From an uncultured candidate division Zixibacteria bacterium (GTDB lineage Bacteria > Zixibacteria > MSB-5A5 > GN15 > FEB-12), in contig CAVTJJ010000002.1 in NCBI GenBank assembly GCA_963735035.1, positions 32,001 through 96,000 of the forward strand: a stretch of DNA of 64,000 nucleotides, written 5' to 3'. The position numbers were made by a program. How positions within the stretch are numbered: the stretch's first letter is position 1; the number at the start of each line of letters is the position of its first letter. Positions 33,001 through 42,000 of this stretch are shown in pieces.

Positions 33001-36000
33001 CATCGGCGCGGCGGCGGCAATCTTCCCGGCCGTCCGAACCCTTCGGGTGAACATTGTCGACGGACTTCGAGTGGTCGACTAAGCGAAATCGAGGCTTGAA
33101 GATGATTCCTCCGAACTATGCAGTACGAAATATCTCCAAACACAAAGTAACCTCGCTTCTCACGATGGCCGGGCTCAGTCTCGTGGTCTTTGTCTTTGCA
33201 GGGTCTCTGATGTTGTCAAACGGATTGAATGAAACCATGGTGGCAACGGGACAGCCTGACAACGTCTCGTTAATCCGCAAGTCGGCTCAGACGGAAGTCA
33301 TGTCGATCGTGTCGTACGAACAGGCTCAGATAGTCAAGGCGGATCAGGACGTAGCCCGCGACCAGGACGGCAATCCGCTCGTAGCCAGTGAAATATACGT
33401 CCTGATTAGTTTGCCCAAACGTGACACACAGGATGAAGCCAATATCGTTGTACGTGGCGTTGGCCCCACATCCTTCGCGCTTCGCCCGAATGTGAAGTTG
33501 GTCGAGGGTCGAATGTGGACAGATCCCGGCTCGGAAGTCATCGCCGGATTATCGGCTTCGAAACGCTACACCGGCTGTGCCGTGGGTGAAAAGCTGAGAT
33601 TCGGAGCCCGGAATTGGACCGTAGTGGGGATTTTCGAGGCCGGTGGCACAGGCTTTGAATCGGAAATCTGGTGCGATATCAATCAGGCCTCCGATGTCTT
33701 TCGGCGCCCGGTCTATTCATCGTTGTTGGCCCGCCTGACCGACACGACGCGGTTCGAGGCCTTCAAGGCCCGGGTAGAAGCCGACCCGCGCCTGACGCTC
33801 GACGTGAAGCGGGAGAAGGATTACTACGCGGCACAGACGCAGATGTTGGGCACCTTCATCAGTATCACTGGAACGGTCATCAGCATAGTCTTTTCTCTCG
33901 GTGCGATTGTCGGCGCCATGATCACCATGTACGCCGCTGTCGCGAACCGTACCCGGGAAATCGGAACCCTTCGGGCTCTTGGCTTTAACCGTTGGAGTAT
34001 CCTGACCGTCTTTCTCTTCGAATCGCTGTTGATAGCCCTGGCGAGTGGCCTGATTGGGATAGGCGCCGCTTACTTTCTGAATTTCCTGCAAATCTCGACG
34101 ACCAACTGGGGCACCTTCTCCGAAATTGCCTTCAACCTCCAACTTTCGACCGGAATCGTCCTGAAGACCCTGGCGTTTGCCCTGATAATGGGGCTGGTCG
34201 GAGGCTTCCTGCCATCGGTTCGTGCCTCACGGCTCCGCATTGTCGATTCTCTGCGGGGCTGATAGGTCTGTGCGCCGTTGACAGATAGCTGTCGTGCGAG
34301 TCGCACGTCCGGAGTGTGCGGCTCAATCAGGACGTTTTTGATGTCTCATCCATGAGACTTTTCTTGACATTTTGGTCCAAATGGTTGTATAATCACCAAA
34401 GAGTTGCGGAATTTGCGGTGGTACGACTTCTCGCCTATACACCCCGCATAGATTTACTTAATTCGTTCTGACCGTTTACGGTATCCGTCATCGGGGGTCA
34501 GACAAATGCATCCAGCGGACTGCTTCGCCCAACTCAGAACAAGAAGTGGTTGCTGGATATGTCTGACTTTATCAGAACCTGGTCAAGAGTCTCCTTCACT
34601 GCCGGAACTAATTCCATTGACGGCTTCTGCCTCCAGCAATTACCACCCTTCTGCTTCCTAACAAACAAGACAGATTATCCCGAAGCGCGGGCTAAGACTT
34701 CGCTTCCGCATGATGCGGTGTGCGAGGTATTGGCGCCGCAAACCGCCCAGTGGGCCTCACACCCTTTCACGGAGGTTCGTGATGATTTTCTTGATTGAGC
34801 CGAACTCAATCCGTCCCCCCTTCTGCCACAAGTGCTCCTTGTTCTGCAGCAAGGAAATTGGACTGTACGGCATTGACCCGACCTAATCCGGGTAGATCGC
34901 GAATTCAACTTAATTAGAAGAGTTCGCATGACTTGTGAGGGAGCGGTCCTGCCGTTCCCTCACCCTGATAACTATGAGTAAGTTGCATTGATACTGTACC
35001 ATCTGGGATGGGTCACGACTGAAGAGCAATTTCAGACGTGAGCTTCCCAGCTAATCGGCCACATGGCCCGCACCCTCACATGGAGGTCCGTGATGATCTT
35101 TTTGATTGAGCCGAATTCGGTTAACCCGCCGAACTGCACAACCAAGTGCAGTCCGAAGAGATACCCGTTGTATGGTATCGATGTTTGATGAGTGCTTTTG
35201 AGTACGCGGGGAACGGCCCAGCCGTTCCCCGCCTCTAGAATCCGAAGACATTTGATTTAGGTAGAAGCAACTCCGGAACGAGTCACGATTGAGCCAATGG
35301 TTTCAAGATTGGCTTGGCCCGGCTAACCGGCCCAAAAGGCCTGAACCAACCATAGGAGGTTTTTCAATGATCTTCTTAATCGAACCGAACACGGTCAATC
35401 CGCCTTGCGTCGTTAAAGTTTGTGCGAGAATTGTACCGCTCTACGGCATCAAGCCGATCGAGATCTGATCTCGGTAGCTGATTTCTACCGATCTCGGTAG
35501 ATAAGCTGTCGTTAGGGAGAACGATCTTCGTTCTCCCTAACGCTGAATACAACATTTAGTGCGACCAGTATGCTGACTTTATCTTCATATAATTACTTCG
35601 CCCCCTGGCACGACGGTTATTTCCTTGCGTACAATGCCCGTTCGGGAGCAGTTGCACTGCTCAACGAAGAGAATCAACGAACCTTTCAGGTACTGCTTCA
35701 AAAGATTAGCGACCATCAGACGGAACAACTTAACCCTGAAGAGCAGGAGTTGTTGAAACAACTGCAGTATGGCAAGTTCGTTCACACGGTCGAACCGCCT
35801 GAAATCGACGTATTGAAGTTCGAAAGCCAGCGCGCCAGGTACGACATGACCTCGCTGGGGCTTGTCATCGCCCCCACCATGGCCTGCAACATGGCCTGCA
35901 CGTATTGTTATGAAAGTTCGCGCGGCGGTCGCATGACAGCGGCGACGATGGACTCGGTGGCGCAACTGATAGAAAAGCAAGCCAGGAGCCTGAAGGATTT

Positions 36001-39000: not shown

Positions 39001-42000
39001 CAGTTGATGGGTTTCTACATCCTACTGACTTTCCTTTATTCCCCTATCCAGGGTTTGGCTCAGTCGTTCCTGCAAATCCAGACCGCGATGGCCTCGGTCG
39101 ATCGCGTGTTCGAATACCTGGACATTCCCCCAGCAGTGGTCGAAGACCCAAACCCCGTCACATTGTCGCAATTCAAAGGTGACATTGAGCTCTGTCAGGT
39201 CCGGTTCGTCTACGAAGATTCCCATTTTAGCGTCGATGACTTCTCCTTGTCGATTCATGCCGGTGAAAAAGTTGCGTTCGTGGGGCCTTCAGGCGCAGGC
39301 AAGACCACCATTGCCAACCTGATCCTCAGGTTCTATGACCCCGACCGCGGGCAGATAACTCTGGATGGTGTTGATCTTCGAAGGCTCCCAATCAAATTCC
39401 TTCGCGACCAGATCGCCCTCGTAGATCAGGACCCGCTGTTGTTCAAGGGAAGCATTCGAGAAAACATCGCCTACGGCCGACCTGAGGCGACTCAGGACGA
39501 AGTCGAAGCGGCCGCCCGGGTGGCAAACATCCATGAATTCATCATGTCACTTCCGCGGGGGTACGAGGCTGAAATTGGCGAGCGCGGCGTGACCGTATCG
39601 GGCGGCGAGAAACAGCGCCTCTGCCTGGCACGGGCGATTTTGACTGATCCGAAGATTCTCATTCTGGACGAAGCCACGTCGGCGCTCGACTCGATGTCGG
39701 AACGATTGATTCAGGATTCACTTGCGAAGATTCTAAAGGGCAAGACGGCGATCATTATCGCTCATCGCCTCGCGACGGTCCAGAATGCCGACCGGATCGT
39801 GGCGCTTGAGTCCGGCCGCATAGTAGATCAGGGCACGCACGACGAGCTGACCGCCCGCTGCCCGCTCTATCGTGACCTCGCCGCGAAACAGTTGTTGGTT
39901 TAATCGATAGATGCCATGCGGACACCGTGCCCGGCAGATGTCCACATCTGCCGCGTTAGAAGATTCATCCGGTACCCCACAGCTTGCTACGGATTGTCTT
40001 AAATTGATCGGCAGGGTTCCACCCCTGCCGTATGACTGGTTGGCCCAGCTGCTTGCAGGTGGGTTGAAGACCGGGTGGTCCATCAGTGTGACCAGATCAT
40101 GGGCACCGCACTATTCCTCCATCTACTAATCTACGGACTCACGCTGGGCAATTTCTCGAACGTGTATCTTCTGCCGCTATCAGGATCATCCACGTAGAAG
40201 AACAGCCGAAGTGGACCAAAATTGAGATCCATCAACCCATACGACATGTAAATGTTGACTACGCACCGGTCCACATGGTCGTTCAACTGCTCAAAATCAA
40301 GTTCAACAGAAGACCGTTCACTGGCCTTCGTGATCAGAGACCATGTTCCAAAACCTGAGATTGATCGCGCGCTATCAAGAGTAAGTGGTAGAAGGATCGA
40401 GGGGAGATGCTCCGCTCTGAATTTTCCATCTCCCCTAATCTCGATTAGTGGCTCCTCCGTCAAGAACAAAGTATCGCCGAATGGCAGAACGACGAAATTG
40501 GACGTCTCTTTTGAGGGCATCCACATACCAATGATCTGACTCTTGTCAGGGGAGCCGCATCCTATCACCACGATTCCTGAAATCGCTATTGCGGAAAAAT
40601 GGGCGCGATACGATTGAATATCCATATGTTCTTTCCTTACCGACACTCGCACGGGTTGAACTTTACAGTTTCACTCCAGTTGAGCACTTGTCGCTTCTCC
40701 AACATGGGTCCAGATGAAAACAGTGCCGGGTGACCCACCTGCTTGCAGGTCGGTTATAAATCCCCTCGAACCCCGCCGATGCCCCCCACCCGACAAGCGG
40801 GTGGGCCACCAGCCAAGTACGGCCCTGTGTCCCGTGACATAGTCTGATTGCATGTCGCAGTATAATTCATACTGCCCGCTCCTGTCAATCACTGCCGGGG
40901 AACAACCGCCCAGGCCACTATCTGAGAATTATTGCGCACTGTCGGACGATGTCATAAATTAGCCGCCAAGAATCGCGAACTACTGAGACACGGAGAACCG
41001 ATGGCTGAAGAATCAAAAACCCCCTGGCTGAATTACCTCGCCCTTACCACCGTTGTCCTGGCCGTGTGCGCCACCCTCTCGACCTTCCGGGGAAGCAGCT
41101 ACTCTACCAAGTCGGTTCTCGCCCAGTCACAGGCATCGAACCAATGGTCGTATTACCAGTCCAAGAGCATCAAAGGGTATCTCTACGAAATCGGACTGGA
41201 AAAGCTTGAACTGGAACAAAAGGAAAAGGCGCCCTCCCTGTCTCCGGAGTTGGCCGCTGACTACCAGAAAATGATCGAAGAGTATCGGTCCACCATAGCC
41301 CGATACGACGGGGAAAAGAAGACCATCGACAGTACCGCCCGATCCCAGGAAGAACGCCGCGATTGGGCACAGGGTCACTCGCAGACCTTTGGCGTGGCGG
41401 TGATCTTCCTGCAAATAGCGATCCTGCTCTCATCGATCGCCGCCCTTACAAAGAAGAAGCCGCTCTGGTATCTCGGAATGGCTGTCGGCTCGGTCGGTAT
41501 GGTTTACTTCATTATGGGTGTGTTCTTCTGATCAAGTGAAGCTTCACAAATTGCTTTACTTTGGCAAGTCCCGATAACCCGCCAATGGCGCGGCTGTGCG
41601 GCCCTTGACCGTCCCCTATTGCCGTACAATCTTCGCAAAGTAATTACGCCACTCAACCCCAGATCGTTGGGGGGACGCCGTCTGAATTATTGCGCGCTCC
41701 CCCCCGCACGGGAACCGCAGACGCCCGGAAATTGTTCAACCAGTCTGTGGATCAGCTAAGATCGACAAGTTGGGTCCAATATTAGGACTACTTCAAGGCG
41801 CATAGAAATTTCAAGCTATTTCAACTTTATATATAACGGAAGCATAACAACTAATCAGTACCTGCTCAAAGTCAAAGGAGATGAACTTATGGTCAGGAGA
41901 ATCACACTAGTAATGGCCTTAGTTGCCATGACCGTCGCGGTGGTCGTTGCCGGCGATATGCAGAAGGCCACAACCGGGACACCGTCGATGGAGGCAATGA

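Follow-up and report, generated by a model that had tools for sequence, protein, structure and literature searches.

Clo7bot systems, of Clostridium origin, contain tandem Cys-rich target peptides and, to our knowledge, have been defined by comparative genomics only. In the ranthipeptide and SCIFF systems (CteB/CteA; PapB/freyrasin), the precursor leader docks on an RRE, and a SPASM enzyme forms thioethers at Cys. The ranthipeptide thioether connects the Cys sulfur to a non-alpha carbon and the sactipeptide thioether to the alpha carbon. The cognate precursors of PqqE and MftC are marked by E-x3-Y and by a C-terminal V-Y, respectively, and the precursors of cofactors usually occur as one nearly invariant copy. 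According to the accessible part of its description, CrpC of Methanococcus voltae (TIGR04463) is an RRE, radical-SAM, and SPASM enzyme that links Cys by a thioether to a residue located a few places further towards the C-terminus, within C-x-x-D/Q-type motifs that recur in CrpA, a protein of 28.8 kDa whose N-terminal 47 residues are leader-like (PMC13692751). The same portion of this source lists CrpA, CrpB, and CrpC as the immediate cluster, none of which is a second SPASM enzyme. For thuricin CD, the accessible text reports that two radical-SAM enzymes, TrnC and TrnD, act jointly on sactipeptide precursors (PMC12093266).

We analyzed a stretch of 64,000 nucleotides from an uncultured candidate division Zixibacteria bacterium (the window). 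It harbors a cassette of three precursor genes (pepA, pepB, and pepC) followed by the genes for Enz1, an RRE-fused radical-SAM/SPASM enzyme, Enz2, a radical-SAM/SPASM enzyme devoid of an RRE, and an ABC exporter (Table 1). This cassette is a genuine, undescribed RiPP family. The gene set is widespread in one uncultured phylum, and its product is most likely a cross-linked secreted peptide, unstudied so far; no description of these peptides or enzymes was found in the searchable papers. The genome-wide survey's note had proposed an undescribed peptide family associated with two radical-SAM/SPASM enzymes and export, and this reading was supported after every test run. The positions that it gave, 34782..39903, are window coordinates, and the genes were found there. 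Subtraction of 32000 was considered and rejected since it would point to an unrelated respiratory operon.

Table 1. Features of the cassette and of its upstream region (window coordinates).
Feature	Position	Strand	Evidence or description
Sigma-70-type promoter-like site	34364..34393	+	TTGACA, 18 nt, TATAAT; consensus match only
pepA precursor, 34 aa	34782-34886	+	ORF, GGAGG 6 nt upstream
GC-rich hairpin after pepA	34935..34963	+	13-bp stem, without U tract
pepB precursor, 31 aa	35093-35188	+	ORF, GGAGG upstream
GC-rich hairpin after pepB	35206..35232	+	12-bp stem, -27.6 kcal/mol, z -5.6
pepC precursor, 33 aa	35367-35468	+	ORF, AGGAGG 7 nt upstream
Two hairpins, pepC-Enz1 gap	35473..35541	+	Second is a 14-bp perfect stem, inverted repeat I3
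Enz1, 451 aa	35570-36925	+	NCBIfam and Pfam domains
Enz2, 380 aa	36922-38064	+	NCBIfam and Pfam; ATGA overlap with Enz1
ABC exporter, 596 aa	38113-39903	+	Pfam and NCBIfam

In common with Clo7bot, the cassette has short, Cys-rich precursors in tandem next to a single RRE-type SPASM maturase, and the Clo7bot model (TIGR04334) is the best family model of Enz1, aligned end to end (residues 5-431 on model positions 3-431 of 440). However, the score of 343.9 bits falls far short of the cut-off (600), the window peptides lie outside the Clo7bot target family (0 NCBIfam matches at E<=1), and the window family has a second SPASM enzyme and an exporter as constant components. Six of the 80 nearest representative Enz1 relatives tested reached the Clo7bot model at E<=1e-130. 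The second-best model of Enz1 is that of the CrpC family, which, as far as its accessible description extends, has the same RRE/radical-SAM/SPASM build. Enz1 nevertheless scores 301.1 bits against a TIGR04463 cut-off of 525 and, in contrast to what that description gives for CrpA, the substrates of the window family are 30-44 aa in length (31-34 aa for the window ORFs) and combine an N-terminal motif of 7 residues with C-x-x-K/hydrophobic units. Among solved structures, CteB (PDB 5WGG/5WHY) comes closest to Enz1 over its full length, including the N-terminal recognition domain, although the two enzymes are only 16-18% identical. The logic of the ranthipeptide and SCIFF systems would extend to Enz1 by analogy, but the window-family peptides lack the C-x3-D/E pattern and the cassette encodes an additional radical-SAM enzyme. 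In both sequence and fold, Enz2 is best matched by PqqE, MftC, and SkfB, from which it differs by scores under every cut-off and by the lack of a PqqD-type partner and of a fused RRE; the window-family peptides carry neither the PqqE nor the MftC precursor motif in the defining position. As in thuricin CD, the genes of two radical-SAM enzymes accompany those of Cys-containing precursors, but the window pair differs in subtype, only Enz1 having an RRE; the likeness is drawn from the accessible description of TrnC and TrnD.

The precursor peptides and their linkage to Enz1

PepA begins with M-I-F-L-I-E-P, contains three Cys residues, and has G-L-Y-G in place of the P-x-Y-G of the family, and pepB contains two Cys as C-x4-C followed by P-L-Y-G. 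The 48-nt start regions of pepA and pepB are 85% identical. All three ORFs are preceded by GGAGG or AGGAGG located 6-7 nt before the ATG, in agreement with the ribosome-binding sites previously attributed to them. The family profile matched pepA, pepB, and pepC with E-values of 1.8e-14, 3.1e-15, and 9.7e-15, respectively. Comparison of the three peptides with NCBIfam and Pfam returned 0 families at E<=1, as the note had claimed.

We collected 75 distinct family peptides, and residue counts were taken on the 67 that are full-length and start with ATG. A Shine-Dalgarno-like site was present in 67/67 cases. The first Cys was residue 14-16 in 57/67 peptides, the Cys-Cys spacing was 4 in 93/150 intervals, and P-x-Y-G was present in 64/67. 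The trends reported in the note were thus retained with slightly different counts: 72 distinct peptides and a first Cys at 14-16 in 64/72 had been given, and the spacing of 4, previously 103/147, remains the commonest. The PLYG-type C-terminal motif holds for the family but not for pepA itself. The N-terminal M-x-[YF]-L-x-x-P is invariant and P-x-Y-G nearly so; in an alignment of 54 peptides, M1, L4, P7, Tyr, and Gly were invariant and the first Cys was the sole near-invariant residue of the core (at least 90% of the peptides). The Cys ladder is variable, with C-x3-C prevailing and Lys frequent at the third residue after Cys (78 cases; V, Y, L, or F also occur at this position), and no single acceptor residue conserved after Cys was found in the family peptides. 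Loci encode 1-7 divergent copies with hypervariable Cys cores. Between the 75 distinct peptides, the DNA changes synonymously and the protein is conserved. Public gene callers already predict 173 such peptide clusters.

A hidden Markov model seeded on the three window peptides only was run on six-frame translations of 29 related loci. All 66 matches at E<1e-2 were on the + strand, upstream of Enz1, and they covered 29/29 loci. Of the other 16 matches, all weaker than E 1e-2, 4 were on the + strand (3 of them upstream) and 12 on the minus strand. In a set of 21 loci of 18 kb (622,732 aa of six-frame translation), 41/41 matches were on the + strand just upstream of Enz1, in 20/21 loci. A peptide-only DNA pattern applied to about 185,000 species genomes retrieved 45 loci, 40 of which have Enz1 (48-65% identity) directly downstream; Enz2 was seen in 37 of these 40, the remaining 3 ending before it. 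Within the phylum, the pattern matched 48/285 genomes and its reversed version, used as a control, 0/285. The 48 positive genomes all belong to the 85 that carry orthologue-level Enz1; the other 200 gave no match. The peptide-linked Enz1 proteins form one clade (33/34 rows, support 97-100). Among the individual loci, L130, which has masked bases upstream, contains intact Enz1 and Enz2 with no peptide found, and one copy (L050) looks decayed. The second locus of the genome holds a paralogous cassette of two enzymes and a peptide family of its own; relatives support these peptides, contrary to the earlier statement that they do not.

The promoter-like site matches the consensus at 12/12 positions and lies about 390 nt before pepA; conservation of the leader region does not extend to the closest relative. 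A stable hairpin is located 3' of each of the three precursor genes. The hairpin following pepA has a folding energy of -24 kcal/mol (z -5.5; 0/200 shuffles fold equally well), and the segment 35466-35560 reaches -43.7 kcal/mol (z -6.5).

The two maturases and the exporter

Enz1 comprises an RRE-like N-terminus (about residues 1-90), a radical-SAM core, and a SPASM domain. The radical-SAM cysteines are C106, C110, and C113 (CxxxCxxC) and the SPASM cysteines C332, C351, C390, C393, C399, C403, and C418. In Enz2, the corresponding residues are C19, C23, and C26 (CxxxCxxC) and a full set of seven SPASM cysteines, C244, C262, C304, C307, C313, C317, and C334. The presence of both cysteine sets in both enzymes, already mentioned in the note, was borne out, with invariance across 117 (Enz1) and 45 (Enz2) aligned sequences. 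Superfamily cut-offs were reached by Enz1 for PF04055 (66.1 bits, cut-off 29.5) and TIGR04085 (61.6 bits, cut-off 27), and Enz2 scored 89.6 bits with PF04055 and 39.8 bits with PF13186 (cut-off 21.5).

At the family level, the five top models of Enz1 are peptide maturases, four of which are named for Cys-rich or Cys-patterned targets. Besides Clo7bot and CrpC, scores were obtained with CefB (218 bits), PapB (NF047865; 132.9 bits, cut-off 340), and the SCIFF maturase (TIGR03974; 93.5 bits, cut-off 425). Enz1 is under every curated cut-off and its membership in a characterized thioether family is therefore not established. Enz2 scored 229.1 bits with the nif11-class maturase model TIGR04103 (cut-off 725), 229 bits with the GDL-motif maturase model (cut-off 592), 105.3 bits with PqqE TIGR02109 (cut-off 381), and 148.2 bits with MftC TIGR03962 (cut-off 265); the NirJ and AhbD models also scored. 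The sub-cut-off values of the note for Enz1 (TIGR04334) and Enz2 (TIGR04103) were reproduced.

The AF2 model of Enz1 (pLDDT 95.1) contains, ahead of the radical-SAM core, a sheet of three to four strands and then three helices (strands 8-13, 17-22, and 27-31; helices 33-47, 56-67, and 78-90; pLDDT >90 over residues 1-90). The canonical RRE topology is PqqD-like, with three strands and three helices. The Pfam PqqD model did not match Enz1. As modeled, Enz1 has the predicted structure of an RRE-fused RiPP maturase. Full-length alignments were obtained with two RRE-bearing enzymes, the thioether synthase CteB (model residues 5-437; Z 28.6-28.8, 395-405 residues) and TigE (model residues 1-437); SuiB, anSME, and PqqE were also among the structural matches. 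At six positions of "catalytic proximity", hand-counted from the alignment, Enz1 has Y114, Y149, I183, T208, W352, and N353, differing at 6/6 from the F, F, T, S, H, and Q given for CteB in the accessible part of the source (PMC10288494). The AF2 model of Enz2 (pLDDT 87) had PqqE 6c8v (E 1.3e-19) and SkfB as top Foldseek matches, and 6c8v was also matched by sequence (E 2.2e-16). Enz1 and Enz2 are 23-24% identical (tblastn cross-matches in related loci).

A match to Enz1 at E<=1e-40 was found in 98/285 phylum genomes, the count of the note, but this figure mixes orthologues with paralogues; orthologue-level Enz1 (E<=1e-115) occurs in 85 genomes plus 2 fragments. The identity of 21-28% previously assigned to the next homologues was not supported, since, with three exceptions, the best 150 representative clusters (mostly full-length, irrespective of taxon) shared 28-42% identity with Enz1. 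Enz2 is translationally coupled to Enz1, which it follows in 28/28 assessable loci and in 21/21 large (18-kb) loci, as the note had indicated. We infer the role of Enz2 from linkage and fold alone.

The exporter is a half-transporter containing ABC_membrane and ABC_tran only (Pfam), without a peptidase domain; an ATG located 33 nt downstream may be its true start. It scored 502 bits with an MsbA-related model (cut-off 780) and 355.1 bits with TIGR01193, which describes peptidase-containing bacteriocin exporters (cut-off 523.85). The latter match begins at profile position 157, indicating that the peptidase part is absent. No protease gene is encoded by the cassette. The exporter appeared rare in the note, but was found inside the operon in 20/21 of the 18-kb loci, plus 1 truncated copy. 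It had been missed in short flanks because it often sits behind an extra gene encoding a B12-binding radical-SAM enzyme. This third radical-SAM gene, present in 13/21 relatives, probably encodes a C-methyltransferase; the window cassette is a minimal version devoid of it. Just three gene clusters are shared by more than 3 of the 21 loci.

Proposed pathway and alternative explanations

We consider it likely that the whole cassette performs RiPP biosynthesis, with RRE-led thioether cross-linking by Enz1, a second modification by Enz2, and export. The short N-terminal motif would be the leader, unusually short at 7 residues, and would dock as a strand on the RRE domain of Enz1. The radical-SAM cluster and the two SPASM auxiliary clusters of Enz1 would then bond the sulfur of each Cys to a carbon in a residue close by, probably a non-alpha one as for the related CrpC. 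Enz2, which has no recognition domain of its own, would introduce a second radical modification on the peptide, either while this is bound to Enz1 or after its cross-linking, with the invariant Tyr-Gly as the obvious candidate site, and the half-transporter would export the finished product.

Thioether formation is most likely the chemistry of Enz1, by analogy with its nearest characterized relative, CrpC (TIGR04463). The same cassette and substrates might operate with an Enz1 that makes no thioethers and instead forms C-C or C-O cross-links, epimerizes residues, or converts Cys in another way, the Cys then serving, for example, in metal binding or disulfides. We regard this as unlikely, although radical-SAM/SPASM enzymes of the same fold perform many chemistries (TigE, SuiB, anSME, and PqqE among the structural matches), Enz1 is under all family cut-offs, and none of the six active-site proximity residues is that of CteB in the accessible source. 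Against it, the five best models are maturases of mostly Cys-patterned peptides, the one characterized member of these families makes thioethers according to the accessible description (PMC13692751), and the first Cys is the only core residue that approaches invariance in the 54 aligned peptides.

It is far less probable that the peptides are precursors of a cofactor or metabolite, like PqqA for PQQ or MftA for mycofactocin, with Enz2 building from Tyr-Gly and the rest being discarded. The proximity of Enz2 to PqqE in sequence and fold, the scores of the MftC, NirJ, and AhbD models, and the position of P-x-Y-G as the most conserved part of the peptides would fit such a role. However, 1-7 divergent copies with hypervariable Cys cores per locus, an exporter conserved in 20/21 cassettes, the lack of conserved PqqB/C/D- or MftB/D/E/F-type genes nearby in the 21 loci, and Enz2 scores under the PqqE and MftC cut-offs argue against it. 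Finally, the attenuator-like hairpin after each ORF could suggest that the small ORFs are chance frames or regulatory leader peptides of a radical-SAM operon rather than substrates. This is hardly credible in view of the protein-level conservation with synonymous DNA change in 75 distinct peptides, the strand- and position-specific matches (66/66 and 41/41), ribosome-binding sites in 67/67, the absence of matches with the reversed pattern, and the 173 clusters already predicted by public gene callers.

Beyond RiPP biosynthesis as proposed above, we tentatively envisage a new RiPP class in which two chemistries operate on one very small scaffold: the 7-residue motif would be the whole RRE recognition element, Enz1 would form a thioether ladder, and Enz2 would introduce an undescribed radical cross-link or rearrangement at Pro-x-Tyr-Gly. 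If so, the 7-residue recognition motif would be among the shortest leaders known and, together with the paralogous second cassette, would point to a phylum-wide radiation of pairs combining an RRE-SPASM with a bare-SPASM enzyme, each co-evolving with its own peptide family.

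Genes and signals of the cassette and their recurrence

The cassette is genuine and well conserved, and on sequence grounds it belongs to the radical-SAM/SPASM systems that act on cysteine-containing peptides. The genome-wide survey's note had placed it at 34782-39903, and the ORFs found there establish these figures as window coordinates. Treating them as contig coordinates, by subtraction of 32000, was rejected because the resulting region contains unrelated respiratory-complex genes. Each of the three precursor genes (pepA, pepB, and pepC) is preceded by GGAGG or AGGAGG located 6-7 nucleotides 5′ of the ATG codon, and pepA and pepB are 85% identical over the first 48 nucleotides around their starts. 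Strong, GC-rich hairpins devoid of a U tract are located 3′ of each peptide gene (-24, -27.6, and -43.7 kcal/mol; z of -5.5 to -6.5). The 5′ leader displayed no conservation in comparison with the closest relative, and an Rfam search of window positions 34200-35650 returned just two sub-threshold matches, at chance level.

Features of the cassette in the window and of the paralogous locus in the same genome
Feature	Position	Strand	Description
Promoter-like site	34364-34393	+	perfect TTGACA-18-TATAAT match
pepA	34782-34886	+	small ORF, 34 aa
pepB	35093-35188	+	small ORF, 31 aa
pepC	35367-35468	+	small ORF, 33 aa
Enz1 (RRE-fused radical-SAM/SPASM enzyme, as predicted)	35570-36925	+	ORF, 451 aa
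Enz2 (second radical-SAM/SPASM enzyme)	36922-38064	+	ORF, 380 aa; ATG overlapping the Enz1 stop
ABC exporter	38113-39903	+	ORF, 596 aa
Second locus	L002:800-3866 = G000 (window's genome) contig 4, about 559350-562414		two small ORFs, Enz1 paralogue, and Enz2 paralogue

A stretch of 14-17 nucleotides just 5′ of the promoter-like site (34316-34332) is 86-88% complementary both to the 5′ end of the pepA coding sequence (34789-34805) and to a segment upstream of pepC (35282-35295); the number of such pairs expected by chance is about 0.06, as a rough estimate. At 1207-8923, the minus strand of the window contains a series of large ORFs of the membrane and Fe-S/molybdopterin types (515, 200, 230, 460, 987, and 215 aa with multi-haem CxxCH motifs), which we take to resemble an alternative complex III-type respiratory operon. 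A MacB-type ABC permease gene (FtsX and MacB_PCD; 33054-34262) lies directly upstream of the cassette on the same strand. This permease is probably not a cassette member since a similar gene was present in only 3 of 21 large loci of 18 kb, a set comprising the window and 20 relatives (622,732 translated residues).

Comparison of these loci confirmed that Enz2 follows Enz1, in 28/28 assessable short loci (1.5-kb flanks) and 21/21 large loci (44 of 48 loci in the survey). The rarity of the exporter reported in the same note was not borne out: its gene is inside the operon in 20 of the 21 large loci and is truncated in the remaining one, the decayed locus L050. The exporter is devoid of a peptidase domain. 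Between Enz2 and the exporter, 13 of the 21 large loci harbor an additional gene of about 475 codons (e.g. L046:10689-12125) encoding B12-binding and radical-SAM domains, which is nearest to models of the RiPP C-methyltransferase type. The cassette of the window does not contain this B12 enzyme, and no peptide feature tracking its presence was seen. Of the 21 large loci, more than three shared only three gene clusters, one comprising both SPASM enzymes, one the exporter, and one the B12 enzyme; neither a conserved protease nor a discrete PqqD-like gene recurred in this set. Family peptides and Enz2 were still present next to deep-branching orthologues displaying 38-39% identity with Enz1.

Precursor peptides and an independent search for them

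A hidden Markov model seeded with the three window peptides only, and iterated once, was used to search six-frame translations of 29 short loci containing an Enz1 orthologue (51-71% identity). The search returned 82 matches at E<=10, 16 of which were weaker than 1e-2. All 66 matches at E<1e-2 were on the strand of Enz1 and upstream from it, and they covered the 29 loci. Likewise, the 41 matches obtained at E<=0.01 in 20 of the 21 large loci were all on the Enz1 strand, within about 3 kb upstream from this gene. Seventy-five distinct family peptides were collected, and counts were made on the 67 full-length peptides starting with ATG. In these 67 sequences, L4 and P7 were invariant, position 3 was Y or F, P-x-Y-G was found in 64 cases, and a Shine-Dalgarno-like site was present in every case. 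Two regularities reported earlier stood with revised counts: the first Cys is at residues 14-16 in 57 of the 67 peptides (64 of 72 previously), and a Cys spacing of 4 is the commonest, accounting for 93 of 150 intervals (103 of 147 previously), with a spacing of 5 in 25 of them. The survey had cautioned that its search imposed part of the motif conservation, and the profile likewise accounts for some of the conservation at the N-terminus and at Y-G; the restriction of the matches to one strand and one position is not imposed in this manner. Public data contain 173 peptide clusters, designated 'hypothetical protein' or unnamed and devoid of Pfam domains. The ESM Atlas queried with pepA gave no usable match.

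Several loci departed from this general picture. In L043 and L044 (genomes G139 and G143, from one phylum family), the peptides have extra Cys after Tyr-Gly, which places this motif in the middle of the sequence instead of at the C-terminal end, and as many as five precursor genes are distributed over 2.5 kb. L050 (G170:C1:664500-682500) is the sole large locus for which no family peptide was found; it has a stop codon inside Enz1 in addition to its truncated exporter gene, and its genome harbors another Enz1 copy elsewhere. L050 is apparently a decaying second copy of the cassette. In L130 (G221), no family peptide was detected next to the Enz1 orthologue, and masked bases are present just upstream; a radical-SAM-like ORF with masked bases (L130:2515-3615) lies directly upstream of this orthologue.

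A degenerate DNA pattern designed on the peptide alone (sensitivity of 36/67 known peptides) was run on one genome per species for 185,579 species. The pattern matched 45 loci, and in 40 of these the match was directly followed by an Enz1 orthologue (48-65% identity). Enz2 was visible in 37 of these 40 loci, the other three ending before Enz2. Two matches, in Maribacter, look like chance occurrences and contain no family peptide. In L076, L084, and L086, three genuine family peptides were found with neither Enz1 nor Enz2 within 3 kb, and the same genomes carry a full cassette; the peptide of L086 is directly followed by a B12-binding radical-SAM gene. Among the 285 phylum genomes, 48 were matched, as compared to none for a backwards-pattern control. 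All 48 were among the 85 genomes harboring an orthologue-level Enz1 and none was among the other 200, these counts being drawn from related, non-independent genomes. Run on the genome of the window itself, the pattern detected pepB and pepC only.

The two enzymes and their proposed reactions

In agreement with the survey, Enz1 scored below cut-off for each of its best NCBIfam models (Clo7bot, 343.9/600; TIGR04463, 301.1/525; FlmE/OhkG, 220.7/500; CefB, 217.7/600; geopeptide, 213.7/400), and all of these models describe maturases acting on Cys-rich or Cys-patterned peptides. C106, C110, C113, and the full SPASM set of Cys residues are present in Enz1 and do not vary among 117 sequences, the most distant of which are 28% identical. 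In the AlphaFold2 model of Enz1 (pLDDT of 95.1, pTM of 0.91), residues 1-90 form a sheet followed by three helices ahead of the radical-SAM barrel. The thioether synthase CteB aligned to residues 5-437 of this model (Z of 28.6-28.8 over 395-405 residues) and TigE to residues 1-437, whereas enzymes lacking a recognition domain aligned only from about residue 90. Enz1 thus carries a fused RRE-type domain, as judged from the full-length alignments and the N-terminal sheet-helix fold of its model. PMC10288494 defines six positions of 'catalytic proximity' on CteB; the corresponding residues of Enz1 are Y114, Y149, I183, T208, W352, and N353 (hand count on the alignment), and they agree with the superfamily-wide consensus.

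Enz2 begins directly at the radical-SAM motif (C19, C23, and C26) and contains a SPASM set of seven Cys. As claimed previously, it is below cut-off for its nearest models, which are the uncharacterised maturases of the nif11-class 3 and GDL-motif peptides, NirJ, AhbD, and MftC. PqqE and SkfB are the closest matches to its predicted structure (pLDDT of 87). In public records, Enz1 and Enz2 are both designated only as 'radical SAM protein' or 'SPASM domain-containing protein'.

Within open-access literature on six NCBIfam accessions, only work on CrpC (TIGR04463) from Methanococcus voltae turned up. The nearest characterised relative of Enz1 is this enzyme. According to the 2026 report (PMC13692751), CrpC engages its substrate through an RRE and introduces thioether links, judged to be of the ranthionine type, between Cys residues in repeated motifs and residues a few positions downstream. 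Because of homology, fold, and the Cys-ladder substrates, we infer that Enz1 is an RRE-guided maker of Cys thioethers: it would bind the N-terminal motif of the family peptides via its RRE and form thioethers at their Cys residues. Enz2 would act at P-x-Y-G, which we propose as its site because this motif is the most conserved feature that a thioether ladder leaves unexplained. New chemistry at the Tyr-Gly motif is a realistic prospect.

Distribution, the second locus, and significance

The survey's count of 98 of 285 phylum genomes encoding Enz1 at E<=1e-40 holds, but it mixes orthologues with paralogues. Scores were bimodal, with 85 genomes at orthologue level (E<=1e-115), two containing fragments of more than 50% identity, and 11 containing paralogues only. 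The superfamily is very large and mostly unnamed (2,779 representative clusters at E<=1e-30), and the Enz1 orthologue family is reduced to two or three representatives after clustering. The identity of 21-28% previously reported outside the phylum is not supported, since the rest of the best 150 of these 2,779 clusters are 28-42% identical, mostly over the full length. Of the 80 nearest clusters tested, six matched the Clo7bot model at E<=1e-130; no other family was matched by any of the 80 at this threshold.

A quick, midpoint-rooted maximum-likelihood tree was built from 67 Enz1-like proteins; in it, for example, an f11 genome is nested among those of f1, and f5 among f1 and f4 (f-numbers designate phylum families). 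This departure from taxonomic families suggests, at the level of the gene tree, that the cassette has been transferred between members of the phylum. Record titles refer to Candidatus Zixiibacteriota, candidate division Zixibacteria, or GN15, and many MAGs of the phylum are labelled 'uncultured Ignavibacteria(les)'. One cassette-bearing MAG is labelled Calditrichaeota and one Deferrimicrobium; several of the MAGs with such labels, the Deferrimicrobium one included, are placed in the phylum of the window. Assigning the taxonomy of the cassette by record name would mislead.

The second locus encodes an Enz1 paralogue (35% identity), whose own orthologues occur in 42 of the 285 genomes (E<=1e-100), and an Enz2 paralogue of 344 aa (27% identity, E of 2e-42) in the same overlapping-start arrangement as in the main cassette. 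Its peptides were said to have no support from relatives. This statement is overturned: when a single-pass profile built on the two peptides was run on 29 other loci, it detected similar peptides immediately 5′ of the enzyme gene in 4 of them (E<1e-4) and gave a weak match in a fifth, all carriers being among the closest relatives. These peptides form their own family, different from the main one. In the tree, a single clade (33/34 rows, support of 97-100) brings together the enzymes associated with the main peptide family, and the second family lies in a subclade of the paralogue clade.

As the survey had stated, the cassette is undescribed, as far as the open-access literature searched shows: neither the cassette nor the peptide motifs are described there. 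Judging from titles and abstracts, none of the Zixibacteria papers on biosynthetic gene clusters or RiPPs is about it. Radical-SAM RiPPs rank among the main sources of narrow-spectrum antibiotics and of new chemistry for cross-linking peptides. To our knowledge, no member of the Zixibacteria has been cultured, and none of their natural products has been characterised. In the minimal form found in the window, the cassette is compact (about 5 kb, with substrates of 31-34 aa and two enzymes). It is carried by about 30% of the species genomes of the phylum, and natural precursor variants are plentiful, as judged from the 75 distinct peptides in the loci and the clusters in public data. It is therefore a tractable target for heterologous expression. 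The cassette also offers a test of the role of an RRE-less SPASM enzyme beside an RRE-bearing partner and a natural experiment in minimal leader recognition. Finally, the three-step series formed by the two enzymes, their combination with a B12 radical-SAM enzyme, and the paralogous cassette may give access to the joint diversification of enzyme pairs and peptide families.
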